DNA from: Candidatus Eiseniibacteriota bacterium
GTDB lineage: Bacteria > Eisenbacteria > RBG-16-71-46 > CAZAMP01
Length of the DNA stretch: 64,000 bases
Assembly (NCBI GenBank): GCA_965224245.1
Contig: OZ245046.1
Span: 1,056,001-1,120,000 of the forward strand
Direction: 5' to 3'
Below are positions 34,601 to 61,048 of this stretch, in pieces. Under the pieces are notes generated by a model. It saw only the letters and a list, made by a program, of their open reading frames with translations. It searched no databases and had not been told where the DNA came from. The position numbers were made by a program, and so were the translations under genes. Position 1 is the first letter of the stretch; each line of letters begins with the position of its first letter.

Positions 34601-34905
34601 TCTCGGCGCCCGACACGGCCCTGCCCACGGCCTTCCCGCTTTCAATACCGGGACCGAACCCATCCCAGCGCGGCACCTCGCTGGCGTTCGCCCTGCCCGT
34701 GTCGTCCGGGGTGCGCCTCGGGATCTACGACGCCGGCGGTCGCCGCGTGCTCACGCTGGTCGATGGAGCCCGGCCCGCCGGCGTTCACCGGGTGGTCTGG
34801 GGCGGCCGTGACCAGGGTGGCCGGCGCGTGGCCCCGGGAATCTACTTCGTTCGAATCGAGGCTGGTGAGCATCGCGCGTCGCGGCGGCTCACCGTCGTGC
34901 GATGA
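31609..34905 (+). CDS. Secreted LVIVD-repeat beta-propeller protein with FlgD-Ig C-terminal domain
   Basis: AGGAGG RBS; about a dozen V.V.GDHA(F/Y)VA...GL.VID(I/V)SDP..P repeats; tail PNP...IYDAGGRRV...GIYFVRI. Confidence 0.9.
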   Translation: MLRGPLSAVTVLVTMVSLILGAPPARTEAGSHVEDFTTTTYRDPVASTANWDTGAGELRLDPFVRGVVGSLGLGDSRKVAVAGDHAFVAGIANGLHVIDIQDPESPFLVTTVAVAGDAQAVAVAGDNAFVLDTASGLMVFDTTDPTSPVLLGSVAMPEVPIDVTIEDGHAFVADYSGGIQVVDVRDPTTPTVIGGVATTNARGVAIAGEHAFVADGASGLRVLDISDPATPAIVATLTPGGSVSGQGVAVAGDHVFLASLTAGLLVIDVSDPTTPSVVGNLDTPGASTEVEIWGDLALVSDWSSFQMIDISDPTAPTLVDDVVTDAACQSVAVAGSRAFVVNGYTGLQVIEFANPWPHPPGPVGTVSLSGSGPIGVAVEGDHAYLVDSANGGLLVVDISDPTLPALVGTVASGTGNPSYDVAVAGDLAILADVNDGLVVIDVGDPTAPAVVATLATPGWHEGVAVSGDHAYLTASAIGLQVIDISDPTSPVMVGSVSPPDDAIDVAVDGEHAFLASGFNGLQVVDVSDPSNPILVGGVDTPGTALGVAVSGNHAYVADRDAGVHVIDVEDPANPVLVRTVPTLDHAQKVEVSGDELFVADFLGGLQTIDISDPSNATRLGGYVFYTGYDLALAGEHAFVASGSGLTVIPVYQEAFDTRRDRGQSLPVDGTDATIVRARLTTSQTTVVDWELSADGGTSFQSVSPGSGWQAIDAPGPDLLWRSTHGLSQLGTNPTAYSLTLDWLCEAGPITSISDVPGDQGGWVAVDFTRSGYDFTDEVTSPVTGYQIYRRVDDATRVRDVREVGRAPAPSELAKTASASFGVDRVRILDDEWFVLGGGGASTRQVGELPPGTWQVLTWVAARQADAYGVAIPTHGDSTGAGAAWSVNLVTTHTTIPSLWFASAPDSGYSVDDLPPGVPSGLVRTGTELSWDAATEEDFQHHTVYGSSTAELDGTATLIDYTIDTTFDVSSTSFGYYHVTTSDHAGNESEAASVDGGLLSAPDTALPTAFPLSIPGPNPSQRGTSLAFALPVSSGVRLGIYDAGGRRVLTLVDGARPAGVHRVVWGGRDQGGRRVAPGIYFVRIEAGEHRASRRLTVVR

Positions 34906-39988: not shown

Positions 39989-42907
39989 TCACGGCAGCAG
40001 GATCAGCTTCCGGCTCGTCGAGGTCGATCCGACCTCGAGACGGACGTAGTACGTCGCGGGCGCGGCACGGCGACCGTCGGCGCGCCGGCCGTCCCAGGTC
40101 ACCCGGTGGTATCCGGCGTCCAGGGGCTCATCGAGCAACGTTCGCACACGACGACCCGTCGCGGAGTACACGTCGATCCGGGCGGTGGTGCGTTCGGGGA
40201 GTCCGAACCGGATCGTCGTTCCGGCGCGGAACGGGTTCGGACGGACCGTGGCCACGAGGGACTGCGCCGGCGCCACCGACCCGGGATCCGCGCGATACGC
40301 CACCTGATCCCAGATGTCGCGGATGGTCTCCGCGGGGACGAGCGCGGCCTGGTTGATGGTCTCGGCGATGTCCGCGGCCAGATCGTCGTTGGTCGGGTCG
40401 CCGTCGAGGATCAGATCGGCGATCTCCTGAAGCGCCTGGCTCGCGGTGAAGCCGTCCTCGGAGACCACGTCGCTCGTGTGGAGCTTCCCTGACGCCACGT
40501 TCAGAAGGAGCGCCAGGTAGTGCTGCTTCGCACGATCCAGGAGGAGCGCGCCGCCGGAGACCGTGAACGTGTCGTAGATCGTCTCCAGATCCAGCGGCTC
40601 AGGACCGGCGCCACCATCCATGAACGTCACGCCCTCCACCACGATCGCGTTCAACCCGTTGTCGTGGAAGTGCTCGAACAGCAGCGCGGGGAAGTTCACC
40701 CGCATGTTCGTCTCGGACTCGTGCGCATGGCCGCGTCCGGTGATGAGCGCCTTCGCCTGGTGCTTCCAGTAGCCCATGCCGCGGATGGGACCGACCGCCG
40801 ACACGCAGGTCAGGTCGAAGTCGAGGACCTGGTCGGTCTCGAGCGTCACCGATGCGTGTCCGTCGGGCGGTGTGTTCGCGGCGTAGCCGAGCGGCACCAG
40901 GATCGACACCTCGCCGAGCCCGGGGTCCGATGCGAGGTCATCGAAGTGGTACTCGCCCATCGCATCGGTCACCGTGCTCAGGAACTGCCCGTCGGGCGTC
41001 GCGAGATCCACGGTGACCCCGGCCAGGACGCTCTGACAGTTCGATCCGACCTTTCCGGACACCGAGACCAGGGCCGGCTCGGATGCGTCGTCACAGCTCG
41101 GACACGTCAGACCGGCCGGAACCGAGACGCCGGGAGCAGCGGTGTTGAACGCCGTCAGGAGCACGTTGTCGAAATACGGCGCGGACGAGGAGCGCGGCGA
41201 CCCGCCGAAGCCGTTCGGGTCGTCGAGGTAGAGCAGCCGGATCCGGATCGCGGTCGCGCCGGGCTCGATCAGATCCGATACGTCCTTGCGGAAGACGAGC
41301 CAGTCCGCACCCGATGTGGCGTGGTAGACGAAGCCGTCGGTTCGGGTCACGTCGCACTGGCCGGCGACGATGGAGACGATCTCGAAGTCGACGAACCGCT
41401 GGACGTCGGCGGCAAAGTCCTCGTGATACCAGCAGAACGCCAGCTCGAACCCGGTCGCGTCCGCAGGCAACGGGATGGGCGGGGACTCCACGCCGATGCG
41501 GATGTGACGCCCCTCGTCCTCGACCTCGGTCGGGGTGCGAGGGACCTCGCCGCTGCCCGGGTCGTAGGCGACCCACGACCAGTCGTTGGCGAGGCAGGTC
41601 GTCGCCGCACACGGCGGGGTCAACTCGCGCCGGAAGCCGGCGATCCCCGCTCCGACGGGAAGCGACGCGGTCCAGCCGTCGCTCTCACCGTCGCCGTCGG
41701 GCACGGCCTCGGGCTCGAAGTCGGCGTCGACGGTCCCCGCGATCTGGATCTCGTCGATCTCCCAGGCGCCGCCGGCCTCCTCGTAGGCGCCGTCGGAGAC
41801 GAAGCGAAGCCGGAGGGTGACGCTCTGCCCGGCGTACGCGGAGAGGTCCACCGAGTCGAGCGCGAACGATCCGTTCGAGCCGTCGAACTGGGCGACGATG
41901 TCGAACGACGACGAGCCGGACGGCCGAACCTCGACGAGGCAGAAGTCGAAGAACGCCTCGGTCTGGTAGCGATGCACGAGATCGAGGCTGACCGATCCCG
42001 ACGGCAGCGTGACGGTCTTGGACAGCCGCTGATCCCAGAGCGGACCATACGCGGAACCTGCGGTCACGATCCGGCAGGGGTCGGTCGTGCCGCACCAGAA
42101 CACGCCTCGCGAACCGCTCGCCGCGTCCGACTCGGTGAGCTGCCAGTGGATCTCGTCGGTGCCGCGCACCGGCCCCTGGGTGTTGACGCTGCTCTCGTCG
42201 AACGGCTGCCAGCCGCCGTCGGACGCGTCGAAGCTCTCGAAATAGATGCACGTGGGGTCGGGTGGACACGCGAGCACGAAGTCGACCGTCCGGTCGCCGG
42301 TGACGAAGAGCTGCGTACTGCCGCCTGGGGGAGAGACGGCATCATAGCCCGTCGCATCCACCGAGAGCACGGGCAAGGGCGGCTGTGTCTGAGACGGATC
42401 ACAGCTGAACGACGCACCACCGGGAGCGAACACGTCGGTGAATGCGTACTGCCCGGTGGCATCCGTCAGCGTGGTGAGCGACGTGCCATCGACGAGATCG
42501 AGGGTGATCTCGACCCCGGCGAGCGCGCCATCGCAGTCGGACACGACCTGTCCGGAGATCGTCGCGAGGATGCAGATCAGATCCAGGTCCACCGACACGG
42601 GTGCGGCGAGGTCCATCGACACGAACGTCGGGGACACCGCCTGATAGCCGGCCGGTGGCTGGAACACGAAGAACGCCTGTCCGGCGTCGGGCAGGCCGAG
42701 AAACGCGAAGTCCCCCGACGCGTCGGTGCAGGCGAGCTCGAAGCCGGTCGGGGTGAACCCGAGCACCAGCACGTTCGCGACCGCGCCGCAATCCGAGGTG
42801 ACGCGTCCCGAGACGTCCGCGGCCATCGCGGGGGGGACCGACCCGAGCAAGACGGCCGCCACGAGCGGGATCGTCCTCGCGGTGAGTCCGTTACGGGGTT
42901 GCTGCAT
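39989..42907 (-). CDS. Large secreted protein: carboxypeptidase-regulatory/Cna-B-like repeats, jelly-roll (InhA/MAM-like) domains, FlgD-Ig C-terminal domain
   Basis: GGAGG RBS; three (I/V)SGxV.SxC...TD..G.(F/Y).F repeats; LRLRFVSDG; tail PNPF...WDGR...TYYVRL. Confidence 0.8.
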   Translation of the reverse strand: MQQPRNGLTARTIPLVAAVLLGSVPPAMAADVSGRVTSDCGAVANVLVLGFTPTGFELACTDASGDFAFLGLPDAGQAFFVFQPPAGYQAVSPTFVSMDLAAPVSVDLDLICILATISGQVVSDCDGALAGVEITLDLVDGTSLTTLTDATGQYAFTDVFAPGGASFSCDPSQTQPPLPVLSVDATGYDAVSPPGGSTQLFVTGDRTVDFVLACPPDPTCIYFESFDASDGGWQPFDESSVNTQGPVRGTDEIHWQLTESDAASGSRGVFWCGTTDPCRIVTAGSAYGPLWDQRLSKTVTLPSGSVSLDLVHRYQTEAFFDFCLVEVRPSGSSSFDIVAQFDGSNGSFALDSVDLSAYAGQSVTLRLRFVSDGAYEEAGGAWEIDEIQIAGTVDADFEPEAVPDGDGESDGWTASLPVGAGIAGFRRELTPPCAATTCLANDWSWVAYDPGSGEVPRTPTEVEDEGRHIRIGVESPPIPLPADATGFELAFCWYHEDFAADVQRFVDFEIVSIVAGQCDVTRTDGFVYHATSGADWLVFRKDVSDLIEPGATAIRIRLLYLDDPNGFGGSPRSSSAPYFDNVLLTAFNTAAPGVSVPAGLTCPSCDDASEPALVSVSGKVGSNCQSVLAGVTVDLATPDGQFLSTVTDAMGEYHFDDLASDPGLGEVSILVPLGYAANTPPDGHASVTLETDQVLDFDLTCVSAVGPIRGMGYWKHQAKALITGRGHAHESETNMRVNFPALLFEHFHDNGLNAIVVEGVTFMDGGAGPEPLDLETIYDTFTVSGGALLLDRAKQHYLALLLNVASGKLHTSDVVSEDGFTASQALQEIADLILDGDPTNDDLAADIAETINQAALVPAETIRDIWDQVAYRADPGSVAPAQSLVATVRPNPFRAGTTIRFGLPERTTARIDVYSATGRRVRTLLDEPLDAGYHRVTWDGRRADGRRAAPATYYVRLEVGSTSTSRKLILLP

Positions 42908-43321
42908 ACTGCCTCCCAGGTTGTCCGGGCGCGATCGGCCCGGCGGGAACGGGCGGAACGGGAAGTGCACGCGCCTCCGGGACGCGAAGCACGGGAGCGT
43001 GGGAGCGCGGGAGCGGTCCCGGTCCGTCGCTCCTCACCTGGGAATGCGCAAAACGGGGGCGGTGACAGCGGCGCCTTCTCGAGACGAGGCCCCGGAGGTG
43101 CGCGACCGGGGAGACCGGGCAAGTGTCGGCTTTCGAAGACGTTGGAGGCGTTCACGGTGCCGCGCGCCGGGCCCCGCCGGGCCGGGGCCACCGGGCTCCA
43201 TCTCGGCGGCTCGCGGGTCGTTGGCAGGGACTGGCCCCTCGGCGGCCGATTCTCCGTGTCCAGAGATGAGACCGACGCCGCTGCACGGCGCCGGCGGCAT
43301 CGCCCGGACGGAGGAGGACCC

Positions 43322-44803
43322 ATGCAGACGGCCAGAACCTCGCCCCGCCGCGCGCTGCGGAGCATCACCGGCTCGCTGGCGCTCACGGTCGCGACGAGCG
43401 GCGCGTCCGCCACCGCGGCGGACTTCCTCGTACCCGACGACTTTCCGTTGCCGATCGCCGTCCAGCTCGCGTGCAACAGCCTCGATCCCGTCAACACGAT
43501 CCGGATCACCGAGCGCATCACGATCACGGGCACCATCGACATCGACGCGTCCTGCGACGGTACCGGTGCCGTCGTCATCCGTCCGGACGTGGATGGCGAT
43601 CGCGCTACCATCGAGTCCGCGCACGCCGGCCCGGCGTTCCGCCTCGTCTCCTGTGAACGAGTCACCCTGCAGGATCTCGACGTGGTCCGCACGTGGCCCA
43701 ACTCGACGAACCTCATCGAGATCTTCACCGCGATCGACTGCACGATCGAGCGCTGTCGCCTGGGGTCGGTGCTGTTCGTGAGTGCGCGTGACGGCCGGGG
43801 CTCGACGCAGCCACCCGATGGAGCCCGGCGCGCCGCCGGCAGCGTGCTGTCGATCGCGTACCCGAAGAACGTCGTGGTCCGGAACTCGCTGTGCTTCTCG
43901 ACACCGCACGGAGCCTTCAGCCGGGGGATCGAGGTCACGAACATGTCCGACACCGACAACTCGATCTTCCTCTACAACAACGTGGTGGGGGACTACGCGG
44001 AGTACGGCATCAGCGTGCAAGGAGGTGGTCTCGACGGACCGCTCGCATTGCTGCGCAACAACGTGGCCGTGAACCACGTCGATCTGGCGGTCGAGCCGGT
44101 GGCCTATCGAAGCGACTTCTTCGCGCCCGGCGAGGTCGTGACGTCGCACAACGTCGCGCTGGCGACGCTGGGCCAGGTCGAGGTCATCGGCGGCGGCGCG
44201 ATCACCATCACGGCGGACGGCGTGCCGGTGGCGGAGTTCCTGCGCCTCGAGCGCCCGGAGGTGGACGACGTCTTCGTCGAGTACCGCTGGTTCATCGGGG
44301 ACTGGGATCCGAACGTGGATCTCTACCGGCTGGAGCCGGCCGCGAATCCCATGCACGACGCACCGGGCGCGTTCGGCCAGACCGTCGCCGACGGGTCGCC
44401 TCATCCCCGGGACGTCGCAGTCGAGGACGACATCGAGCACGATGCCAGGCCGAGCGGGGACACGCTCCACACCGATCGCGGCGTGGATCAGCTCGAGCTG
44501 GATCAGCTTGCCGTGATCAATCCGTCGGGGCGGTCCGGACCGCTCCGAGCGTCACCCCGGACGAATCCCTCCTTCGCGCCTGCCGCGATCCAGTACGCGA
44601 CCGAGATCGAGGGGAGCCTTCGCCTCGAGGTGTTCGACATCTCCGGACGCCGGCGTTTTGTCGACGAGCGGATCGTCACGGCTGGAGACACCGGCGCAAT
44701 CGCGATCCCCGACGACGGTCCTGGCGTGAGGTTCTACCGACTGCTTCTCACATCGTCGCGAGGCGCTAGCCAGCTCTCCGGCAAGCTCCAGCGTCTCGAC
44801 TAG
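43322..44803 (+). CDS. Secreted right-handed beta-helix (pectin-lyase-like fold) protein with divergent FlgD-like tail
   Basis: GGAGGAGG RBS before ATG 43322; signal peptide; VTLQDL, CTIERC, VVVRNS, LYNNVV, LLRNNV; tail NP...VFDISGRR...GVRFYRL. Confidence 0.7.
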   Translation: MQTARTSPRRALRSITGSLALTVATSGASATAADFLVPDDFPLPIAVQLACNSLDPVNTIRITERITITGTIDIDASCDGTGAVVIRPDVDGDRATIESAHAGPAFRLVSCERVTLQDLDVVRTWPNSTNLIEIFTAIDCTIERCRLGSVLFVSARDGRGSTQPPDGARRAAGSVLSIAYPKNVVVRNSLCFSTPHGAFSRGIEVTNMSDTDNSIFLYNNVVGDYAEYGISVQGGGLDGPLALLRNNVAVNHVDLAVEPVAYRSDFFAPGEVVTSHNVALATLGQVEVIGGGAITITADGVPVAEFLRLERPEVDDVFVEYRWFIGDWDPNVDLYRLEPAANPMHDAPGAFGQTVADGSPHPRDVAVEDDIEHDARPSGDTLHTDRGVDQLELDQLAVINPSGRSGPLRASPRTNPSFAPAAIQYATEIEGSLRLEVFDISGRRRFVDERIVTAGDTGAIAIPDDGPGVRFYRLLLTSSRGASQLSGKLQRLD

Positions 44804-44928: not shown

Positions 44929-47900
44929 TCACCGCCGGAGCAGCAGCTTCACCGACGCGATCGGCTCGCCGTCGAGCCGGAGCCGGGCGAAGTAGACTCC
45001 GCTGGGAGCGGCGTTTCCGGTCGCGTCCCGCCCGTCCCAGACGACCTCGTGGAGGCCGACGTCGATCCGTCCCAGGTCCGCGCGACCGACGAGGCGGCCG
45101 GACACGTCGTAGACGTCCAGCGTCGCGTCCCCGGTGCGAGTCGTCTGGAATCGAAGCCGTGTGCTGGCGTGGAACGGGTTGGGCATCGCGACGAGACGTC
45201 CCGCCGGCGGCTCGGAGGAGATCCCGGGCTCGTCGGTTTCCAGGAGGCCGCCCGGCTGTCGGATGACGAGGTGGCCGTTCTCGGTGCCCTCGGGGTCGAT
45301 CCCCTGCACGCACACGGTCACGCTGCCCTGTGCCGGTCCGCCGCGCAGCAGCTCGGTGGACCAGGTCGGATCGGGAACGGTCAGGTCGGCGAGGAACTCG
45401 TATCCGACCTCCTCCACGGTGACCCGTGCCGTCACCGGAGAGATGTTGTGAATGGTCGCCATGAAATCGTGTGGCGACCCGTCTCCGGGGTAGCTGGCGG
45501 TCTGGTAGAAGCCCCACGGCTCGACGAACGCGACCTCCTGATAGCCCTCGGGGAACGAGAACTCGAGCAACAGCTCCGCCGGCTGATCGGTCGGATTCGA
45601 GATCCGAAGTCCGCCGGCGCCGAGTGCACCCGTGATGCCGACCGTGGCCGTCGCCTCGGGGGCGAGCACGAGATCGGACTGCAGTCGGACGTCGATGGCG
45701 AACGACGCGATGGGGTCGGCGGAATCTCCGCGCCGGTGCAGCTCGATCAGCGTCTGATCCGGGAACTGGGCGGGATCGGTCTCGAGCTGCGCCGACAGAC
45801 ACCGGCGCTCTCCCGCGAACGAAGGGATGCTGTCAAGCTCGGACGCGACCGGGCTCGGAGGAATCTGGAGCGGCCACTCGACGTCGTCCTCGTCCCCCGC
45901 GCAAGCCGATCGCGCGATGGCCAGGAGGTCGGCGGCTTCCTGGTAGCGCCGGCTCGAGACGTCGTTCAGCGTGCCGAACACGTCCGAGTAGAACTCGCCC
46001 CCACCTAGGACGTCCACACCTGACGAGACGCCGCACCGCCCCGCGCGCCCTGTCGTGCCGCCCTTGACGCCGATCGCCATCGGAAACCACGATTGCTGGG
46101 ACGTGAGATAGAACGTGTCCACGGTGGCCAGACCACCGAGCCGCACTACCGTCCAGCTGGCGGTGCCCACGAGGTCGCGGAAGATGTCGTGCTGCATGGC
46201 GATCCGGGTGAGCTTCAGCATGTCGAACGCGCACGAGTACGGGTAGGTGCCGTCGGTGTCCTGGATGTCGAGACCGGCGGGATTCGTGAAGTACGTGTGG
46301 TCGAGACCGGCCGTGGCGGCGCGCGCGTTCATCATGTCCACGAAGTCCTTCGTCGTTCCGTAGTGGTCGGACCAGGTGGCGTCGCCTCCGGTGAGCAAGT
46401 CGGCGACCGCGTAGGAGGCATCGTTGTCCGATTCGGACATCGTCAGGATCAGCAGGGTCTCCAGGCTGAGAAACTCACCCGCGACGAGGGGAGACGTCGT
46501 GCCCGCGATATTGTTCGCGGCCCACGACGGGACCAGGTACACGTCGGAGAGGTCGGCGAGCCCATCCTCGATCATCTCGCAGGCCAGGAGCGCGGTCATG
46601 ATCTTCGTCGTGCTCGCGATCTGCACCTCCTCGAAGAGGCGCCGCGAGTACACGATCGTGTTCTCGCAGTCCCGTGCCATCGACGTCACGCAGCGATGCT
46701 GCTCGGGCTGGCGCCAGGGAAGCAGCGCGTACACGATGCCGCTGTAGCCGTCGTGGTTCGGCGCGCCGATGGCGAGTCCGGCGCGTGAGCCGGCGTTGTT
46801 GTCGAATCGCCCGAAGGTCAGCGACATGCCGAGCCGCTGATCGTTCCAGGCCTGGTAGTCGATCTTCTTCGTGTTGTAGGTGATGTGCGAGGCCACGTCG
46901 AGCCCCGTGGCGTTCCCGTAGAGCACGTGAACGTGGCCCGAGTTGACGACCGAAGCGAGGTTCTGTCCGGGGGCGGAGATCGCGAGGTCGTCGTACGGCC
47001 CCACGGTGAAGCGGCCTGCGGCCACGGCGTACCCGAACAGCTCGTCCGTTCCCGGCGTGCCGTCCACATCCGACTGTGTGAGACGCAGGACGCTGGACTC
47101 GCGGAGGCCGGTGAACGATCCGTCGGCGACGTACACCTGGCCGGCGTTGTCCTTCGTGCCCACGTCGCGCCACGGCTCACCGATGACGAGTGATCGATAG
47201 CCGCTCTCGTCGTCGGTGAAGTTCCCCACCGCCAGCGACCAGCCGAAGTAGGCATTCGATTGGGGCGGTGCGCCCGGCCAGAGGTCGACGGCCGTGTGCC
47301 AGTCGCTCGGGCTGGTGTCCAGGCCCCCGGGGCCGCCTTCGGTGAGGAAGATGCGTCCCTCGTTCGCCAGACCGATCACGGTCATGTGGGGCGCGCCGAT
47401 GATCAGGTCGTCGCTCGGATCCCCCATGACGTGGCCGGCGGCCAGCTTGGCGCCGAACTCACTGTCGGCCGGCGGGGCGCTCAGCCAGTCGGACGCGCTG
47501 AACTCGGTGCGGCGCGGGTCGTCCCACCGGAGTCCCGAGGCGTTTCCGTAGAACACGGACACTCCACCCTGGCGACCGTCCCGGCCGGGTCCGCCGACGG
47601 CCAGGTCCTCGTATCCGTCGTCGTCGAAGTCGCCGACCGCCAGGGCCCAGCCGAAGCGCTCGTCGGCCTGGAAGGCCCCGACCAGGGCTGCGCTGGCGTT
47701 CGGCGAGATGCCGATGCCCGCGATCCCCGGGTAAATGAGAACCGCACCCCCGTTGTTGAAGGTGCTCCCCATCCCGTCGTTGGTGTTGACGAACGGGAGA
47801 GCCACTGCGAGATCGTCGGCGCCGTCGCCGTCGAAGTCCCCTGCGGCGAGGACCCGGCCCATCTCGATGCTGGTGTCGTCCTCCCAGCTCGGATCGATGG

Positions 47901-48243
47901 AGAGCTTGTCCGCGCCCGCGTGCGTGAGCCCGGTCGGGCTCCCGTAGTTGATCGTGACGAATCCGTGATGGCGCGTATCCGGGTAGTCACCTTGCTCGTC
48001 GTGGGGGGAGCCCACGGCGAGGTCGTTGTAGCCGTCGTCGTCGAAGTCTCCGGCGGCCGAGGCCCAGCCGAAGTAGTCCCCTGGCTCGCGAGCTCCCCGG
48101 GACTCCTCCCCTTGACGGATCAAGGAGAGATGGGCGATCGCCGGCTGAAACGTGATCGAGACCGCCAGAGCGGCACCGAGCACTCGCGTCCACCGCCTCG
48201 TTGCGGTACGGACGATCGGGAAGAAACGTCGTTCATGGAACAT
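44929..48243 (-). CDS. Fusion: integrin-alpha FG-GAP propeller, S11 D-Ala-D-Ala carboxypeptidase, FlgD-Ig C-terminal domain (paralog 1)
   Basis: About 7 FGxxLAxGDF..DG..DLA(V/I)GAP repeats; IASTTKIMT, SDNDAS, FTNPAGLD, VKGGTT; PNPF...GVYFARL. Confidence 0.85.
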   Translation of the reverse strand: MFHERRFFPIVRTATRRWTRVLGAALAVSITFQPAIAHLSLIRQGEESRGAREPGDYFGWASAAGDFDDDGYNDLAVGSPHDEQGDYPDTRHHGFVTINYGSPTGLTHAGADKLSIDPSWEDDTSIEMGRVLAAGDFDGDGADDLAVALPFVNTNDGMGSTFNNGGAVLIYPGIAGIGISPNASAALVGAFQADERFGWALAVGDFDDDGYEDLAVGGPGRDGRQGGVSVFYGNASGLRWDDPRRTEFSASDWLSAPPADSEFGAKLAAGHVMGDPSDDLIIGAPHMTVIGLANEGRIFLTEGGPGGLDTSPSDWHTAVDLWPGAPPQSNAYFGWSLAVGNFTDDESGYRSLVIGEPWRDVGTKDNAGQVYVADGSFTGLRESSVLRLTQSDVDGTPGTDELFGYAVAAGRFTVGPYDDLAISAPGQNLASVVNSGHVHVLYGNATGLDVASHITYNTKKIDYQAWNDQRLGMSLTFGRFDNNAGSRAGLAIGAPNHDGYSGIVYALLPWRQPEQHRCVTSMARDCENTIVYSRRLFEEVQIASTTKIMTALLACEMIEDGLADLSDVYLVPSWAANNIAGTTSPLVAGEFLSLETLLILTMSESDNDASYAVADLLTGGDATWSDHYGTTKDFVDMMNARAATAGLDHTYFTNPAGLDIQDTDGTYPYSCAFDMLKLTRIAMQHDIFRDLVGTASWTVVRLGGLATVDTFYLTSQQSWFPMAIGVKGGTTGRAGRCGVSSGVDVLGGGEFYSDVFGTLNDVSSRRYQEAADLLAIARSACAGDEDDVEWPLQIPPSPVASELDSIPSFAGERRCLSAQLETDPAQFPDQTLIELHRRGDSADPIASFAIDVRLQSDLVLAPEATATVGITGALGAGGLRISNPTDQPAELLLEFSFPEGYQEVAFVEPWGFYQTASYPGDGSPHDFMATIHNISPVTARVTVEEVGYEFLADLTVPDPTWSTELLRGGPAQGSVTVCVQGIDPEGTENGHLVIRQPGGLLETDEPGISSEPPAGRLVAMPNPFHASTRLRFQTTRTGDATLDVYDVSGRLVGRADLGRIDVGLHEVVWDGRDATGNAAPSGVYFARLRLDGEPIASVKLLLRR

Positions 48244-48541
48244 GACGTGGCTCCTGTCTTCGTCGGATGTCGGCTCGGGGCGGGCTTCTTCCGGGACCGA
48301 CTCCGTCTACGTGGAGCGGGCTGCGAGCCGCTGGGGAAGCACTCCGATGCTGCACGCGGCTCTACTCGGTAGTGCGGAAAATGCCGGCGCGCTGTCACCT
48401 TCGCCGGTGGACTCGCGGGGATCGTCGCGATCGAGCCGCAGACCCGCTGGTCACACGGAAGCGGGCATCGCACGCGCGTTTTCCGTTCACTCGTGCCATA
48501 CTCCCACGGTTCGGAACGACCCTCCGGAAGTCGAGGTAGGG

Positions 48542-50797
48542 ATGCGGACACGTCTCGGGCGCTACTCGATCGTGGGCAAGCTGGGTCAGGGTGGCATGGG
48601 CGTCGTCTACGAGGGGCTCGACGAGACGCTCCGGCGACGCGTCGCGCTGAAGGTGCTCGCGGAGCCCGGCGACGCGAGCGCCCGCGATCGGTTCCTCCGC
48701 GAGGCCCAGGCCGCCGCCGCGCTGACCCACCCCAACGTGTGCCAGATCTACGAGATCGGAGAGGATGGGGACGAGCTCTTCCTCGCGCTTGAGTTCCTCG
48801 AAGGCCGGCCGCTGGATCAGGCGCTGACGGGCGGTCCTCTATCCGCGCCGGAGGCCGTGGATATCTGTCGGAGCGCGCTGGCGGGGCTGGCGGCGCTGCA
48901 CGGCGCCGGCCTCGTGCACCGTGACCTGAAGCCGTCGAACCTGTTCCTGGTCCGTGACGGCGTGAAGCTGCTCGACTTCGGTCTCGTGCGCCGCGCGTCT
49001 CCCGAGGGACCGGACGATCTCGTCCTCACCCGGCCCGGGACGACCATGGGAACGCCGTTCTACATGGCACCCGAGCAGTGGCGAGGCGAGCCGGTGACCG
49101 CCGCCACCGACCTCTACGCGATGGGGGCGGTCCTGTACGAGATGGTGACGGGAGCGCCGCCGTTTCCCGGGAAGTCCGTAGGGGAGGTTTGCGACGGTGC
49201 GATCCACCGGCATCCGCCGCCGCTCGCGGGCGGGGCGGGCGTCCTGGCCCTCGACCGGGTGGTTCAGCGCGCGCTGTCCAAGCGCCCGGAGGACCGATAC
49301 GGGTCGGCCGCGGACATGGTCGACGCACTCGGCACGATCGGTGGAAGCCGGAACGCGACGGGGAGCGTCGACGCTCCGGTGCGCGCGCTGAAGCGCCTCG
49401 TGGCGATCCCGTTCCGGGTGCTGAAGCCGGACCCCGAGACCGACTTCCTGGCGTTCAGTCTTCCCGATGCGGCCGCCATGTCGCTGTCCGGTCGGCCGTC
49501 GCTGGTCGTGCGATCCACGCACGCGGCCAGCCGGTTTGCGGGAGGACCGCTGGATCCTCCCACGATCGCCCGCGACCTCGACGTCGACGCCGTGCTGTCG
49601 GGCACCCTGGTCCGACACCGCGACCGCGTGCGCGTGAACGCGCAGGTGATGAACGTCCCCGACGGGACCGTCGTCTGGTCACACCAGCTCGAAGGCACGC
49701 TGGACGACCTGTTCGCGCTCGAGGACTCGCTGGCGGGAAGCCTGGCGGCGTCGGTGGAGGGGACGCTCGATGCCGACGTGTCGAACGCGGTCACGCGGGA
49801 GCTGCCGGCCGGCTCGGCGTATCGGAACTACCTGCGCGCAAACGACATCCGCTACTCGGCGATGCGGCCGACGGCGCTCATCGAGGCACGTGACCTGTAC
49901 CGGGCGTGCGTCGACGAGGACGCGACGATGGCGCCCGCGTGGGCAAGATTGGGTCGCATTCACCGCATCATCGCCAAGTACGGCTTCGGCGACGGCGAGA
50001 CGAACCGGCGCCAGGCACGCGAGGCCTTCCAGAGAGCACTCGACCTCGAGCCCGATCTGCCGCTCGCGCACAACCTCTACACGTTCTTCCAGCTCGAGGA
50101 GGAGGGGGACGCCGAGAGCGCCATGGTCCGTCTGCTCGGTCGGGCGAGGGCCCACGGCGAGGATCCCGATCTGTTCGCGGGACTCGTGGCCACGCTCAGG
50201 TTCTGCGGACTGCTCGATGCGTCGTTGGCGGCCTACGAGCGCGCGCGCAGCCTGGACCCGGCGATCCAGACGAGCGTTCACCACACGTACCATCTCGCCG
50301 GCGACTGGGTCCGGGCCGCGGACGCGGACCGGGACGAGCCCTTCTTCCTCCGGCTCGTCTGCTGGGACCACCTGGGGCGGTCCGAGGACGCCGTGGCGGC
50401 GCTGACCAAGGCCGCGAGCCCGGACCAGGCGGGCGTGGAGGGCATGGTCGCCGGCGCGGCGCTGGCGGCGATGACCGATGACCCCGACCGATGCTCGGAG
50501 TACCTACGGCGAATGGCCACGGTCGGCATGCACGATCCCGAGGCGCTCGCGCTGGTCGCGATGATCGCGGCGCGGGCGGATCTGGTCCCGGACGCCCTGC
50601 GGTTGCTGGATCGCGCCGTGGACAGAGGCTTTGCCGCCGCGACGCACATCCTTCGGGATCCCTGGTTCGATTCCGTCCGAGCGGAACCCGGGCTCGCCCC
50701 GATCGCCGAGAAGGCCGAGCGGAAGGTGCAGGCGGCCCGCGCGATGTTCCGGATGTCGGGCGGAGGGGAGCTGCTCGGGGTGGGCACGGGGGACTGA
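48542..50797 (+). CDS. Cytoplasmic Ser/Thr kinase with TolB_N-like and TPR domains
   Basis: GQGGMG, VALK, HRDLKPSN, DFG, GTPFYMAPEQ; LVAIPFRVL...VDAVLSGTL...VRVNAQ; TPR tail. Confidence 0.92.
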   Translation: MRTRLGRYSIVGKLGQGGMGVVYEGLDETLRRRVALKVLAEPGDASARDRFLREAQAAAALTHPNVCQIYEIGEDGDELFLALEFLEGRPLDQALTGGPLSAPEAVDICRSALAGLAALHGAGLVHRDLKPSNLFLVRDGVKLLDFGLVRRASPEGPDDLVLTRPGTTMGTPFYMAPEQWRGEPVTAATDLYAMGAVLYEMVTGAPPFPGKSVGEVCDGAIHRHPPPLAGGAGVLALDRVVQRALSKRPEDRYGSAADMVDALGTIGGSRNATGSVDAPVRALKRLVAIPFRVLKPDPETDFLAFSLPDAAAMSLSGRPSLVVRSTHAASRFAGGPLDPPTIARDLDVDAVLSGTLVRHRDRVRVNAQVMNVPDGTVVWSHQLEGTLDDLFALEDSLAGSLAASVEGTLDADVSNAVTRELPAGSAYRNYLRANDIRYSAMRPTALIEARDLYRACVDEDATMAPAWARLGRIHRIIAKYGFGDGETNRRQAREAFQRALDLEPDLPLAHNLYTFFQLEEEGDAESAMVRLLGRARAHGEDPDLFAGLVATLRFCGLLDASLAAYERARSLDPAIQTSVHHTYHLAGDWVRAADADRDEPFFLRLVCWDHLGRSEDAVAALTKAASPDQAGVEGMVAGAALAAMTDDPDRCSEYLRRMATVGMHDPEALALVAMIAARADLVPDALRLLDRAVDRGFAAATHILRDPWFDSVRAEPGLAPIAEKAERKVQAARAMFRMSGGGELLGVGTGD

Positions 50798-50807
50798 CGG
50801 GGCGGTG

Positions 50808-51620
50808 ATGCACACGCGATCGATCGAGAGCTGGGAGCACGATCACGCTTTCGGTCAGGATCGGGTGCGACCCGGCGAACGGCGCACGATGATCGTGATC
50901 GCCATCACCGCCACGACCATGGCGGTCGAGGTCGTCGCTGGCATCCTGTTCGGATCCATGGCACTGCTGGCCGATGGTCTGCACATTGGGCTCGCACGCG
51001 GTCGCCCTCGGCCTGAGCGCGTTCGCCTACGTGTACGCACGGCGCCGCGCGCACGACGAGCGGTTCAGCTTGAGGACGGGAAAGGTCAACGCGCTCGCCG
51101 GGTTCACCGGCGCGATCCTGCTGGTGGGGTTTGCGCTGGTTGCCCCACGGATGAAGATCGCCAGGCTCACGAGGACCACGATCTGCGGTCCGCCTACCTG
51201 CACGTACTGGCCGATGCGCTGACGTCGCTGACGGCCATCTTCGCGCTCGTCGCAGGCAAGTACCTGGGGCTCGACTGGCTGGATCCTCTGATGGGGATCG
51301 TCGGCGCGCTTCTGGTCGCGAAGTGGTCGCGAGGGTTGATCCGGCAGACCCGCCGCGTGCTGCTCGACAGGCAAGCCGCCCCCCGCATCCGGGAGGCGAT
51401 CCGGAGCGGCATCGAGGACGCGACCGACGACCGCATCACCGATCTCCACGTGTGGTCGATCGGACCGGGAATCCACGCGGCCGAGATCTCCCTGGTCACG
51501 CCGAGCCCCGCGCCGCCCGACGCGTACAAGGCACGGCTGCCCGGGGGACTCGGTTTGGTTCACGTGACCGTCGAGATTCACCGCTGCACCGATCCGGTCG
51601 AAGCCGGTGGGCGGCCGTGA
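50808..51620 (+). pseudogene. CDF family (DmeF-like) Co/Ni/Zn efflux transporter, frameshifted and internally deleted
   Basis: SMALLADGLH continues in another frame as GSHAVALG...GKVNALAGF after an extra T at 50986-50987; returns near 51140 to HDLRSAYLHVLADALTS...DLHVWSIG; central TM helices missing. Confidence 0.85.
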
Positions 51621-51811
51621 GCGGCGCGCCCCCGGTACTTCCACTAACCTTTTGTTGGTAGGAACGTTGTGCTGCCCGGGGTCGGTATCGGCTGCTCGGC
51701 CGACCTGGCCCGGCTCGCCTCCGACCCGAACGCCGCGTGCGTTCGAGCACGATCCTGGTGTTGCTCTGGCGACAACCGACCGATCACGTCCGATCAACTC
51801 GGAGGCCCGTC

Positions 51812-54800
51812 ATGGCGCATTCGCCCGCCGGCACGCCCGTTCTTCCGTCTCCTTCGCGCGTCGCGGCCATGGCCACCGCCTTGCTCGCGCTCACCGGTGC
51901 GGCCCATGCGCACCTGTCCATCATTCGCCAGGGCTACGAGAGCGCGGAGATCTCGGAGTCCAGCGATCAGCACGGATTTGCCGTGGCGGCCGGTGATTTC
52001 AACGGCGACGGATACGACGACCTCGCGATGGGCGCCCCCCAGGAGGACGGTCCCGCGGGCGCCAACTCCGGCGTCGTGTGCGTGAACTGGGGCTCGGAGT
52101 ACGGCATCACGCACGAGGGCGCAATCGTGTACGACGCCGACGACATGGGGGGGGCCGCCAGCGCCGGGGCGAACCTCGGCTTCGCGCTCGCGTCGGAAGA
52201 TCTGGACGGAGACGGGTTCGACGATCTGATCGTCGGCGCACCCTTCGAGACGGTGAACGGAGCGGCCGGCGCGGGCGCCGTCTACGTCATGACGGGAAGC
52301 ACGCTCGGGCTCGTGCCCTGGCTGCGGATCGACCAGTCCGACCTCGGCGGCACGGCCGAGACGGGCGACTGGTTCGGGTTCTCGCTGGACACGGGGTATC
52401 TCGACGACGACGCGTACCCCGATCTGCTGATGGGTGCCCCCGGCGAGGATACGGCCCGGGGAACCGTGTGGTTTCTCTTCGGAACGAGCACCGGTCCATA
52501 CGGAAGCGCGAACCACATCAATCCCACATACGGCGGCTACTCCACCGGGAGCGGCGATTTCTACGGCTACTCGGTGGCCGCCGGGAACTTCATGGGCGGC
52601 GCAGAAGACGACATCATCGTCGGGGCCCCACACTTTCCCCAGGCCAGTGCGCCGAGCGACCTCGGTGCGGTCTTCGTGACGCCCGGATCCGCGGGCGGCC
52701 CCGATCGGGCGGCGACGCGCCGGTACTTCGCCAACGGCGGGCAGGCCGGCGCCGAGTTCGGACGCTCGGTGGCGGTCGGACACCTCCTCTCGAGCGCGTA
52801 CGACGCGGTCGCGGTGGGCGAGCCGCTCCACGACAAGGGCGGGATCGTGGACGCGGGGCGGGTGACGGTGTATCCGGGCTGGTCGGGTGGTCTCAACACC
52901 GATGCCGCACTTCCGCTGTACAGCTCGGTGGCCGGCGGGGTCGACGAGGCGAGCGACGGATTCGGTCAGGTGCTGGCCGTGGACTACTTCTGGGACGCGA
53001 GCGACGGCTACCAGGACCTCGTCATCGGAACGCCCGGCGAGGGGTTCGGCACGCCCGACGCGTATGGTCAGGTGCAGATCCTCAACGGTGGTCCCTCCGG
53101 GCCCATCGGCGCCTACGGCTGGTTCGGGTTCAACCAGGGGACGCTCAACGAGACGCCCGAGCCGCTCGACGTTCTGGGAGCGTCGATCGCCTTCGGTCGC
53201 TTCGACGGCACCGACCTGGTGAACCTCGCCGTCGGCGCGCCCGGCGAGGACGCATTCGGCGGCATGGTGCACGTGATCGCGCCGTGGCGCCAGGTGTTCA
53301 ACCTGTCGTGCGACAACTCCATCGTCCTCGACTGCGACGAGAACATCTACTTCTCACAGAAGCCCTTCGAGCGGGTTCGGATCGCGTCGACCACGAAGAT
53401 CATGACCGTGCTGATCGCGGTGCAGGCGGTGGAGTGGTATGACGAGCTGTCCTACGACGACGTCTACACCGTTCCGGCGTGGGTGGCCGACCAGATTCCC
53501 GGCTCGCAGGTTCCTCTCTTCGAGGGCGAGACGATCACGCTCCGGGATCTCATGTACACGTGCCTGATGCTCTCGGGAAACGACGCCGCGTTCGCGATCG
53601 CGGACATGATCCAGGGGGGCGAGGGCCCCGACGTGTCGGTGCCGCTGTTCGTGGCCCGCATGAACGCGATCGCGAGCATCCTGAACATGGACGACACGCA
53701 CTTCCACAACCCGGCGGGACTCGACGAGGAGCCCGTGGGCCCGGACCTGGGCGAACACTACTCCACGCCCCAGGACATGGCCAAGCTCAGCGCATATGCG
53801 ATGACGTTCGACACGTTCCACACGATCGCCGGCACCACGGCGTGGCCCATGGTCCGGCACTTTCCGGCCTTCGACATCGCGTGGACGGTCAACAACATCT
53901 TCGCCGGCGTGCTGATGAACAACATCGAGCCGCTCGTCGGCATCAAGGGCGGCTACACGACGCTCGCCCAGAACACCGGCTGCTTCGCGGGCGAGACGCC
54001 CCTCGGCGCGCGATCCATCGCGGGCACGTATCACACGCCCGACGCGCTGAGCGACAACTATGGCCCCGATGCGGGTGCGCTCGTGCAGCTCGGGCTCGGG
54101 TCGTGCGGGTTTTCGTTCGAGCTACCCGACGAGTGGTCGTATACGGACAGCCCGATCAACATCGGTCGCGTGTCGTCGGGTGTGGGGAGTCGTCGCGGAT
54201 TCTCCTCGGGCATCCCGCGAGAGTTCCATGGCGACATGGCGTACTCGGTTTACCGGACCTCTTGGGACACGGGGCTGCCGTCCTCGTTCGAGGCGTGGAT
54301 CACGCACGTGGCCGAGCTTCGGGGCCGGGCCTCGTATGAGCTCGGCGCGAGCCACCACGACGGACACGGCCCGATCAAGATCACGAACGTCGGCGACGCC
54401 ACCGCCTCGGTACAGGTGTGGCAGCCGATCGACGTCACGACCGTGGACCTCGAGCCGGGGGAGACGGCCCTGGTGCCCGAGTACCTCGGGCGATGGGCGC
54501 TCGGCTTCCCGGTGCGATTCACGTCGAACGGCGGCGAGAGCCCGATCGACCTCGACGTGGAGATCCCCTGGCGCCATCTCGTGACGGCGCCGGAGGCGCC
54601 GACGTCCGATCCCGTGTACCAGACGACGCTCATGCGGGAGAGCGACATCCGGGATCAGGTGGAGATCCGGACCGAGGGGATGGATCCGGCACCCGACTTC
54701 CACTCCATCGTCGGTCACGTGGAAGGGGTGCTGCTCGAGGCTCCGGATCCGGCGGGGACCGAGCCGCCGGCCGCCATCACGCTTCGCGCACCGACGCCGA

Positions 54801-55063
54801 ACCCGTTCCGCGCGGCGGCCCGGATCTCGTTCGACCTCTCCCGCGCGGGAGAGGTCGGTGTCGAGATCTACGACGTGTCGGGTCGCCTCGTACGCACGTT
54901 CGCGCCCCAGCGCATGGCGCCCGGAGGCTGGGGTCTCCGGTGGGACGGCCGCGACGACGGCGGCGCCGAGGCGGCCAGCGGCGCCTACTTCTACCACGTC
55001 GTCGTCGACGGTGAGGTCGCGGCCACCGGCAAGCTCACCCGCATCGTCGACGCGGCGGGGTGA
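51812..55063 (+). CDS. Fusion: integrin-alpha FG-GAP propeller, S11 D-Ala-D-Ala carboxypeptidase, FlgD-Ig C-terminal domain (paralog 2)
   Basis: GGAGG RBS; FG-GAP repeats; IASTTKIMT, SGNDAA, FHNPAGLD, IKGGYT; PNPF...GAYFY. Confidence 0.85.
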   Translation: MAHSPAGTPVLPSPSRVAAMATALLALTGAAHAHLSIIRQGYESAEISESSDQHGFAVAAGDFNGDGYDDLAMGAPQEDGPAGANSGVVCVNWGSEYGITHEGAIVYDADDMGGAASAGANLGFALASEDLDGDGFDDLIVGAPFETVNGAAGAGAVYVMTGSTLGLVPWLRIDQSDLGGTAETGDWFGFSLDTGYLDDDAYPDLLMGAPGEDTARGTVWFLFGTSTGPYGSANHINPTYGGYSTGSGDFYGYSVAAGNFMGGAEDDIIVGAPHFPQASAPSDLGAVFVTPGSAGGPDRAATRRYFANGGQAGAEFGRSVAVGHLLSSAYDAVAVGEPLHDKGGIVDAGRVTVYPGWSGGLNTDAALPLYSSVAGGVDEASDGFGQVLAVDYFWDASDGYQDLVIGTPGEGFGTPDAYGQVQILNGGPSGPIGAYGWFGFNQGTLNETPEPLDVLGASIAFGRFDGTDLVNLAVGAPGEDAFGGMVHVIAPWRQVFNLSCDNSIVLDCDENIYFSQKPFERVRIASTTKIMTVLIAVQAVEWYDELSYDDVYTVPAWVADQIPGSQVPLFEGETITLRDLMYTCLMLSGNDAAFAIADMIQGGEGPDVSVPLFVARMNAIASILNMDDTHFHNPAGLDEEPVGPDLGEHYSTPQDMAKLSAYAMTFDTFHTIAGTTAWPMVRHFPAFDIAWTVNNIFAGVLMNNIEPLVGIKGGYTTLAQNTGCFAGETPLGARSIAGTYHTPDALSDNYGPDAGALVQLGLGSCGFSFELPDEWSYTDSPINIGRVSSGVGSRRGFSSGIPREFHGDMAYSVYRTSWDTGLPSSFEAWITHVAELRGRASYELGASHHDGHGPIKITNVGDATASVQVWQPIDVTTVDLEPGETALVPEYLGRWALGFPVRFTSNGGESPIDLDVEIPWRHLVTAPEAPTSDPVYQTTLMRESDIRDQVEIRTEGMDPAPDFHSIVGHVEGVLLEAPDPAGTEPPAAITLRAPTPNPFRAAARISFDLSRAGEVGVEIYDVSGRLVRTFAPQRMAPGGWGLRWDGRDDGGAEAASGAYFYHVVVDGEVAATGKLTRIVDAAG

Positions 55064-60642: not shown

Positions 60643-61048
60643 TCACCCCGCGCGTTGCCGACGCGGACTGAAACGCCACGTCATCCGACGAGACTCGCCG
60701 CCCCCGTCGTGTCGCCATGTCGCCAGCCTCGGGTGACGTGCGACACGATCCGGATGGGAGATCACCGGACCGCGACCGGGCTCACGCGGGTATCCACCGC
60801 GTCGAGTAGGCGTAACGCCACCGGCCCCGACGGCGTCGAGCGGCGGCATCCGACATGCAAGTGCACATGCGAGGCGCGTCGGCGAAGCTCGCCGCTCCCC
60901 GAGCGCGGACGCTCGCGCGCGTCGTTCGTCCGCGCGCTCTCGAGACCCCGGATGTTGCTTCCCCGGATACGGCGCATGTCGCATGCGAGGCGTCACTGCC
61001 CTCGGCAGCCCCTGGAAGGTCCTCCTCGCCACGGACGATGGAGACGCG

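Follow-up and report, generated by a model that had tools for sequence, protein, structure and literature searches.

DD-peptidases are the textbook enzymes of periplasmic cell-wall maintenance and the targets of beta-lactams. Soluble forms that are released from the cell are known from actinomycetes, namely the R61 enzyme of Streptomyces and the R39 enzyme of Actinomadura, the physiological role of which is unclear; such exocellular enzymes have reportedly been suggested to act as beta-lactam protection. In Bdellovibrio bacteriovorus, Bd0816 and Bd3459 are secreted DD-endopeptidases resembling penicillin-binding protein (PBP) 4 that de-crosslink prey walls, as described in the accessible parts of PMC3276566 and PMC4686830. 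The accessible part of PMC2605481 pairs FG-GAP repeats only with trypsin, and no paper on an FG-GAP protein carrying an S11 peptidase, or on a DD-peptidase as cargo of the type IX secretion system (T9SS), was found in the open-access and bioRxiv literature. Here, two neighbouring genes were analyzed in a window of 64,000 nucleotides (contig OZ245046.1, positions 1,056,001 to 1,120,000) from a Candidatus Eiseniibacteriota bacterium. Both genes encode a fusion of an FG-GAP propeller, a Peptidase_S11 domain, a beta-sandwich and a T9SS-type C-terminal tail, and both very probably belong to a family of exported, catalytically competent S11-type enzymes. The architecture is new and the change at the active site is systematic; the kind of enzyme, an exported DD-peptidase, is known, and the family extends over several phyla and is uncharacterised.

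Architecture and active site of the two fusions

The window corresponds to C1:1056001-1120000 of a host genome of 6.94 Mb in 27 contigs with a completeness rating of 97%, and has a G+C content of 69%. The named homologs of both proteins come from metagenome-assembled genomes (MAGs) of 'Candidatus Eisenbacteria'. The two genes are divergent and separated by 3.5 kb, and the gap holds a gene for a Ser/Thr kinase and an open reading frame (ORF) of cation-efflux-like type. The proteins align over their full length by BLASTP (32% identity, ~1096 columns, E 2e-120), and Pfam detects FG-GAP, Peptidase_S11 and a C-terminal FlgD_ig domain in both. Their features are as follows.

44929..48243, minus strand: paralog 1 (P0001), 1104 aa, with signal peptide, propeller, S11, beta-sandwich and T9SS-type tail
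48133..48243, minus strand: paralog 1 signal peptide, aa 1-37, predicted cleavage between AIA and H38, read from sequence
46708..48132, minus strand: paralog 1 FG-GAP propeller, aa 38-512, spanning HLSLIRQG to PWRQ and containing 3 DxDxDG-type loops
45874..46707, minus strand: paralog 1 S11 domain, aa ~513-790
46603-46614, minus strand: paralog 1 SxxK, S544-T-T-K547
46423-46431, minus strand: paralog 1 SxN, S605-D-N607
46057-46065, minus strand: paralog 1 third motif, K727-G-G729
45199..45861, minus strand: paralog 1 family-specific beta-sandwich, aa 795-1015 (family middle-region profile, E 2.2e-42)
44932..45198, minus strand: paralog 1 FlgD_ig / T9SS type A-like sorting domain (FlgD_ig 41.7 bits; TIGR04183 22.0 bits; tail profile E 1.9e-25)
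51737..55063, plus strand: paralog 2 (P0002), 1108 aa counted from GTG
51812..51910, plus strand: paralog 2 signal peptide, predicted cleavage between AHA and H59, read from sequence
51911..53293, plus strand: paralog 2 seven-blade FG-GAP propeller, aa 59-519, with two DxDxDG-type loops
53294..54121, plus strand: paralog 2 S11 domain, aa 520-795
53387-53398, plus strand: paralog 2 SxxK, S551-T-T-K554
53573-53581, plus strand: paralog 2 SxN, S613-G-N615
53945-53953, plus strand: paralog 2 third motif, K737-G-G739
54122..54781, plus strand: paralog 2 family-specific beta-sandwich, aa 796-1015
54782..55060, plus strand: paralog 2 FlgD_ig / T9SS type A-like sorting domain (FlgD_ig 36.6 bits; TIGR04183 17.3 bits; tail profile E 2.3e-33)

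Paralog 2 probably begins with the ATG at 51812, because the database version of the protein (P0003) has the 1083 aa that this start would yield. An AlphaFold2 model of this form, built with a 98-sequence alignment, reached a mean pLDDT of 92.9 and a pTM of 0.88. Because this pTM is obtained over a four-domain chain of 1083 residues, the domains appear to be confidently positioned relative to one another, and the modelled body is rigid and multi-domain. Signal peptides were assigned by eye from the sequence and its conservation. After the hydrophobic N-terminus, AIA is followed by HLSLIRQGEES in paralog 1 and AHA by HLSIIRQGYES in paralog 2; the AxA site is kept across the family, with A31 in 75 and A33 in 89 of the 98 aligned sequences (numbering of the 1083-aa form).

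The FG-GAP match (PF01839) amounts to 84.7 bits (E 3e-24) in paralog 1 and 108.2 bits (E 1.5e-31) in paralog 2. It can be observed from the DSSP strands of the model that the paralog 2 propeller consists of seven blades of four strands, and that blade 7 combines three strands from residues 458-489 with the N-terminal strand 33-35 (HLS) as its fourth. As judged from the DSSP string, this N-terminal strand would close the propeller in the usual 'velcro' manner. Foldseek aligns the model with integrin alpha propellers at E ~1e-20 and a TM to target of ~0.7. At the junction of propeller and S11 domain, PWRQ..C..DC is present in both paralogs and near-invariant in the family. The N-terminal HLSIIRQG motif and the PWRQ exit occur together in 4/4 paralogs of the genome and nowhere else among its 34,163 ORFs; elsewhere, the N-terminal motif reads HLSIIRQG in a Planctomycetaceae homolog and YLGLIRQG in a Krumholzibacteriota homolog. 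Cys508 and Cys765, each present in 96/98 sequences, may form a disulfide. A propeller of this kind is also fused to a PhoD-like phosphatase at C1:6222859-6225987, with no tail detected by Pfam, a further case of an exported enzyme built on the propeller as its chassis.

These results agree well with most of the original prediction, an earlier reading of the window that had described the two divergent ORFs as paralogous fusions. Both ORFs exist, and the architecture and paralogy are confirmed by Pfam and BLASTP; structure prediction, which it had named as a check, gave a confident model. The integrin-alpha-like propeller that it proposed is borne out by the seven modelled blades and the Foldseek matches, and the PWRQ...C...DC linker is located at the propeller/S11 junction of both proteins. 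Its shared signal peptide and N-terminal motif are likewise present, with one correction: the mature protein had been read as starting with Ala, and the AxA signal-peptidase site makes His the likely mature N-terminus.

Regarding the S11 domain, Peptidase_S11 (PF00768) scores 85.1 bits in paralog 1 and 102.7 bits in paralog 2 against a cut-off of 27.6, and Pfam gives no S13 catalytic domain in either. Comparison by hhalign with a 40-sequence S11 profile gave a probability of 100, E 1.7e-57 and 38% identity over 249 columns. The best solved relatives are S11 enzymes as well, with sequence matches to 3mfd at E 2e-22 and to the K15 enzyme (1skf) at ~1e-17; Foldseek superposes the model on 3mfd, DacB of B. 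subtilis, with E 4.6e-18, an rmsd of 3.2 A and 32% identity over 258 columns. The catalytic apparatus is conserved: both paralogs have STTK for SxxK, and for SxN paralog 1 has SDN and paralog 2 has SGN, so that the two motifs are intact as had been predicted. Across the 98 aligned sequences, in which mean column identity is 36%, the nucleophile S526, the general-base Lys K529, S588, K712 and G714 are invariant (98/98), the SxN Asn N590 is kept in 97/98, and T716, two residues past the third-motif Gly, in 95/98. SxxK is also retained in 148/149 of the relatives of at least 800 aa. Because the catalytic residues are invariant or nearly so at this mean identity, the pattern appears to be the signature of a working enzyme and not of a dead domain.

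The third motif differs from that of canonical S11 enzymes. Both paralogs carry KGG where S11 enzymes have K-T/S-G on strand beta3, and the KGG aligns with the KTG of DacB (3mfd), with that of the Streptomyces K15 enzyme and with the corresponding column of the 40-sequence S11 profile. The residue between Lys and Gly in the 98 sequences is G in 66, P in 28, S in 2, T in 1 and Q in 1. A wider tally covered those 212 of the collected relatives whose S11 match was long; a match of any length was present in 225. In its long members (>=800 aa, n=149), KGG was found 80 times, KPG 49, KTG 6, KSG 4, KDG 4 and other forms 6, so that KGG or KPG occurs in 129/149 and a T or S middle residue in only 10/149; stand-alone S11 matches (<500 aa, n=51) have KTG in 43 and other forms in 8. 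By the mimicry argument, the contact that the KTG threonine makes to a beta-lactam is the one it makes to the terminal D-Ala carboxylate of the substrate. In the PBP5-meropenem complex, its hydroxyl hydrogen-bonds the drug carboxylate in a bidentate manner, according to the accessible part of PMC6478713. Because this threonine contacts the carboxylate in PBP5 and the family has Gly or Pro at the position, the family appears to have given up, or relocated, one specific contact to the substrate carboxylate. In the original prediction, the shared KGG had been taken to suggest altered specificity under selection. The substitution itself is upheld by the alignments, and the suggestion was right in spirit and is strengthened, although the change is not peculiar to the two genes: it is family-wide and alternates with KPG.

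NCBIfam PBP models all score far under their cut-offs, with the DacA, DacC and DacD models at 20-54 bits against 610-765. The domain that follows S11 was not recognisable as PBP5_C: neither paralog has a Pfam match to PBP5_C (PF07943), and hhalign against S11 proteins that carry PBP5_C stops at the S11 boundary, where the alignment to the S11 profile also stops. Modelled alone with AlphaFold2, this middle domain is all-beta with a pLDDT of 90. A Foldseek search against the PDB returned nothing usable (TM <=0.26), and a search of the protein atlas gave no usable match. In a wide search with VIA the best Z was 7.4, within the background of 7 to 8 stated for the tool; the matches at this background level were the SID1 ectodomain, TPPII, GOLD and subtilisin C-terminal jelly rolls. 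A profile search of the 34,163 ORFs of the host genome found the domain in the four paralogs only.

Family, distribution and the C-terminal tail

The host genome contains four full-length copies, the most of any genome sampled in the phylum; the two outside the window are located at C1:6272159 (54% identity to P0002) and C1:4164628 (40%). At least 149 relatives of >=800 aa were found, in Eisenbacteria, Krumholzibacteriota, Planctomycetota and Verrucomicrobiota. An architecture search, also named as a check in the original prediction, found FG-GAP with Peptidase_S11 in 104 of the best 120 database relatives, and FlgD_ig as well in 79. The named relatives are annotated 'FG-GAP repeat protein', 'hypothetical protein' or 'D-alanyl-D-alanine carboxypeptidase'. 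When 1.84 billion representatives were searched with the S11 domain, 16,914 matches were obtained at E <=0.001, the top ~90 of which were nearly all proteins of 1050-1180 aa with S11 at residues ~500-790; ordinary S11 enzymes of 350-450 aa rank after them.

A FastTree phylogeny was built from 181 S11 domains, comprising 149 long, 12 mid-length and, as outgroup, the first 20 of 51 short sequences (31 short ones were left out). Separated from stand-alone S11, the fused domains group in a single clade (157 rows) with SH-like support of 100 and a stem of 0.84; the root is approximate, as the outgroup is not one-sided and 4 rows fall on the wrong side. KPG dominates in the deeper branches and in one 17-row clade, and KGG in a crown clade (68/72 rows). 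Because P0001 lies deep on a long branch (1.07) and P0002 falls with the C1:6272159 copy within a clade of 10 rows, the two neighbours appear to be old paralogs and not the product of a recent tandem duplication.

Within the phylum the distribution is patchy. The family was found in 17/151 sampled genomes (E <=1e-40), a count that includes the host genome and one unpublished genome, G015; by taxonomic family, 7/10 genomes carry it in one, 6/60 in another and 0/32 in a third. Outside the phylum, the full architecture including the tail is present in a Krumholzibacteriota MAG, the homolog of which also keeps the middle domain. Propeller and S11 are joined in MAGs of Planctomycetaceae, Planctomycetota, Phycisphaerales and Verrucomicrobiales. 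The middle domain is present and the tail absent in the proteins from Planctomycetaceae and Phycisphaerales; P0099, the Verrucomicrobiales protein, gave no match to the middle-domain profile at E <=10. In the cases checked, the N-terminal motif and the middle domain seem to go together with the S11 fusion, and this distribution suggests a conserved core of propeller, S11 and beta-sandwich with the tail as a lineage-specific addition. A separate case is P0114, a protein of 788 aa from a deltaproteobacterial MAG (11.5-Mb contig), which has six FG-GAP repeats and a canonical KTG S11 domain (E 2.4e-52) and no further domain; it may represent an independent origin of the propeller-S11 fusion.

The tail comprises the last ~85 residues. 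Both paralogs exceed the FlgD_ig cut-off of 27 and fall just below that of TIGR04183, the T9SS type A model, so the FlgD/T9SS-like tail of the original prediction is indeed present in both. Assignment to the flagellar hook-capping protein FlgD was rejected, as full-length FlgD models score 28.7-29.6 bits against 230-383 and only the Ig-like part is matched. A profile of the family tail matched 453 ORFs of the host genome, and 421 of these matches end <=15 residues from the stop, which points to a very large predicted exported set. Besides many FG-GAP-only proteins, examples from this set are an LVIVD propeller protein, an InhA-like/CarboxypepD_reg protein, a PhoX phosphatase and a C25 (gingipain-type) peptidase of 1765 aa that also carries FG-GAP repeats. 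Examples of tail-ending ORFs in the window are 31609-34905, 39989-42970 and 60983-62893.

Export machinery is encoded in the same genome: PorU reaches 469.6 bits (cut-off 420), the summed score of SprA is 540 bits (cut-off 200), and directly beside PorU there is a PorV-like gene. A C-terminal region of PorU also gives a match. Export beyond the outer membrane, as originally proposed, is therefore plausible in view of these genes and of the tail on 421 ORFs, with the reservation that the tails stay below the TIGR04183 cut-off. Among other wall-active families, the tail occurs on two of the seven M23 peptidase genes (C1:755180-758047 and C1:5209503-5212904) and is absent from the other five; both tailed proteins are large, one with HYR and the other with BACON and a beta-helix, and they are possibly fellow wall-cutting cargo. 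The tail is absent from the genome's three Amidase_2 genes and from both of its stand-alone S11 genes. One of these stand-alone genes encodes a 408-aa DacA-like protein with PBP5_C, and the other was identified as S11 by one search. Because the genome has these two ordinary genes, the four fusions seem to be extra S11 copies and not the housekeeping enzyme; the ordinary periplasmic DD-peptidases can look after the producer's own wall.

Genes around the fusions

Two further features lie between the paralogs.

48152..50797, plus strand: Ser/Thr protein kinase gene (Pfam: Pkinase, a weak FlgO-like stretch and tetratricopeptide repeats (TPR)), true start uncertain
50631..51620, plus strand: cation-efflux-like ORF, outside the system, with ends that resemble a CDF transporter

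The 5' end of the kinase ORF overlaps the start of paralog 1, and because of this overlap the real start of the kinase probably lies further downstream. In the cation-efflux-like ORF, the middle ~100 residues are Arg-rich and look out-of-frame, and codon-position G+C is mixed; it may be a pseudogene or contain compensating frameshifts. On the other side of paralog 1 and convergent with it, a plus-strand frame at 43034-44803 has a coding-type codon-position G+C of 0.68/0.52/0.86 over 589 aa and matches no Pfam family.

Neighbourhoods were compared across 26 stretches, namely the window, 2 other loci of the same genome, 18 loci in another 14 genomes from the phylum, and 5 loci from public data, one of them duplicating another. 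The only recurring neighbours were an extracytoplasmic function (ECF) sigma factor in 5 stretches and a TPR Ser/Thr kinase in 4. ECF sigma genes of this type number 44 in the genome, ~1 per 158 kb, and ~13% of 20-kb stretches would be expected to contain one by chance. The sigma factor and the kinase were accordingly rejected as functional partners, their recurrence being about at chance level given their abundance in the genome. In the window, the ECF sigma factor (PF07638; 36184-36831, plus strand) and the TPR Ser/Thr kinase beside it (36843-39767, minus strand) are convergent; in the C1:4172378 region, such a pair is co-directional and abutting.

Proposed function and comparison with known systems

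The delivery of the fusions is envisaged as follows. The Sec signal peptide would be cut at AxA before His, and the new N-terminal strand HLSIIRQG would close the seven-blade propeller, which continues through PWRQ..C..DC into a serine DD-peptidase domain of S11 (PBP5/DacB/K15) type. Next would come the beta-sandwich, followed in phyla of the FCB group by a C-terminal domain for type IX secretion. After folding in the periplasm, the tail would be recognised and the protein would pass through the SprA translocon, whereupon the PorU sortase would release it or attach it to the surface. Outside the cell, the propeller would hold the substrate polymer or surface, while the SxxK, SxN and Lys/Gly apparatus would cleave a D-Ala-X bond through an acyl-enzyme in material met there, be it the peptidoglycan of foreign or dead cells, muropeptides or D-Ala peptides of another kind. 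Gly or Pro in place of Thr would remove the carboxylate-binding hydroxyl and shift preference away from a free terminal carboxylate. Because the replacement is family-wide, the leaving group probably differs from that of ordinary DD-carboxypeptidases, as in an endopeptidase-type bond. Taken as a whole, that is, DD-peptidase-like enzymes exported by T9SS and acting on non-self peptidoglycan or D-Ala peptides with altered carboxylate recognition, this proposal stands at an even balance of probability; its substrate, non-self peptidoglycan or its fragments, is put forward slightly more tentatively, just short of even.

Several observations weigh against this proposal. The TIGR04183 scores of the two tails (22.0 and 17.3 bits) are just under the cut-off of 23, the PorV-like gene scores 92.8 bits against a cut-off of 250, and GldM (TIGR03517) gave no match in the genome in a search whose controls were equally silent. 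No paper on type IX secretion in Eisenbacteria was found in the literature searched, and a T9SS tail is lacking in the Planctomycetota and Verrucomicrobiota members of the family. The 26 compared stretches share no conserved partner or immunity gene. Furthermore, what follows from the missing KTG threonine could be weaker catalysis and not a new specificity. Because FG-GAP propellers are joined to many unrelated enzymes, the propeller says nothing specific about peptidoglycan. None of the analyses lent support to the adhesin role, or to the action on foreign walls, D-amino-acid peptides or beta-lactams, that the original prediction had put forward.

This versatility of the propeller, joined in the same genome to a C25 peptidase and to a PhoD phosphatase, fits an account that is rather unlikely overall, in which the S11 domain is a serine hydrolase departed from peptidoglycan chemistry (an exported peptidase, esterase or amidase with the propeller as a general binding module) that acts on environmental D-amino-acid peptides or on another secreted or surface polymer. 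The carboxylate-binding Thr is gone in 139/149 long members (T or S in 10), NCBIfam PBP models reach at best 53.7 bits against 610, and the stem of 0.84 separates the clade from ordinary S11. However, the domain is canonical bar one residue (STTK, SGND, NPAGL-type), with 38% identity to the S11 profile and 32% to DacB. The same threonine is pertinent to a role outside the cell, where the protein would be displayed as a decoy or sensor of beta-lactams or as a weak beta-lactamase and would guard against neighbours' antibiotics; this role we consider very unlikely. The penicillin-binding fold with SxxK, SxN and K.G intact, the secondary Pfam match to Beta-lactamase2 (E 9e-10 and 4e-4) and an extracellular location, as suggested by PorU, SprA and the tail set, are consistent with it, but the threonine that bonds the carboxylate, as described in the accessible part of PMC6478713, is replaced by Gly or Pro, a change that would, if anything, speak for poor binding of beta-lactams. 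With 15.4 bits, the match to the class A beta-lactamase model stays under the cut-off of 200, and a role of this kind accounts neither for the 460-aa propeller nor for the conserved beta-sandwich.

An equally low probability is assigned to remodelling of the producer's wall by the enzyme within the periplasm, the tail being a mere structural Ig-like domain. All well-studied Gram-negative S11 enzymes are periplasmic, relatives in Planctomycetota and Verrucomicrobiota are tail-less, and cargo of the T9SS folds while still in the periplasm. On the other hand, the tail ends 421 ORFs of many enzyme kinds in a genome that encodes PorU and SprA, two ordinary S11 genes are already present, and the patchiness of the family (17/151 genomes of the phylum) misfits a core wall function. 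It is highly improbable that the fusions are catalytically dead adhesins or lectins that grip D-Ala-D-Ala termini by means of the PBP fold: the non-canonical third motif and the large, adhesin-like architecture would suit such a binder, but none of the 98 sequences deviates at the nucleophile Ser, at either Lys or at the SxN Ser, and SxxK is kept in 148/149 long members. Lastly, a more elaborate form of the exported wall-cutting proposal, distinctly unlikely at present, treats propeller and S11 as a composite enzyme in which conserved Arg/Gln pairs of HLSIIRQG and PWRQ, contributed by the closing blade of the propeller, would be placed at the cleft and replace the lost threonine in recognising the substrate. 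The cross-links cut by such an enzyme would be ones without a free leaving-group carboxylate, such as D-Ala-Gly or D-Ala-L-Ala bridges in Gram-positive walls, and the enzyme would serve as a T9SS-delivered wall-cutting weapon or as a tool for harvesting necromass. If so, the producer's own wall would be unharmed during periplasmic transit and therefore no immunity protein would be needed.

Returning to the proposal of T9SS-exported DD-peptidase-like enzymes, its confirmation would provide a second example, after the Bdellovibrio enzymes, of PBPs turned outward, here in abundant uncultured soil and sediment bacteria. It may reveal recycling of bacterial necromass, including D-amino-acid peptides resistant to ordinary proteases, or attack on neighbours. 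The family is, moreover, a natural experiment on the role of the KTG threonine.

Among known systems, the class C low-molecular-weight PBPs of MEROPS family S11 (PBP5/DacA, DacB/PBP5*, K15) have a homologous catalytic domain, with SxxK, SxN and K.G in the same columns. The fusions differ in the seven-blade propeller attached through a conserved junction, in the absence of PBP5_C and of a membrane-anchor helix, in KGG or KPG for KTG, in the T9SS-type tail and in their separate S11 clade; with PBP5_C missing and equivalog scores far under cut-off, they are not of PBP5/DacA type. Integrin alpha and bacterial FG-GAP/VCBS propellers share the seven FG-GAP blades and the DxDxDG Ca-type loops, whereas the fusions have no beta-subunit partner, and the HLSIIRQG strand and PWRQ exit are specific to the S11 fusions. 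The exocellular R61 and R39 enzymes belong to S12 and S13, come from Gram-positive producers, lack a propeller and keep canonical third motifs. Regarding the tail, T9SS cargo with a type A C-terminal domain, such as gingipains and chitinases of Bacteroidota, has the same combination of an N-terminal Sec signal and a C-terminal beta-sandwich of ~80 aa, as far as the accessible part of PMC11205867 describes it, and homologs of PorU, PorV and SprA are encoded in the host genome; here, in contrast, the tail scores better as FlgD_ig than as TIGR04183, and the host phylum is not known from experiments to use the system. Bd0816 and Bd3459 presumably belong to family S13. Assignment of the fusions to the Bd3459 type, that is, S13 with an inserted domain II, was rejected, as Pfam assigns S11 and no S13 and the best solved relatives are S11 enzymes. 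The Bdellovibrio proteins are PBP4-like and of ~46 kDa and retain SXXK, SXN and KTG, according to the accessible part of PMC3276566; they come with an ankyrin immunity protein and have neither a propeller nor a T9SS tail. What they share with the fusions, as far as the accessible parts of PMC3276566 and PMC4686830 go, is that both are extra, Sec-exported and structurally modified PBP paralogs beside a housekeeping copy, and by this analogy the Bdellovibrio enzymes would be the nearest functional precedent for the job proposed here.

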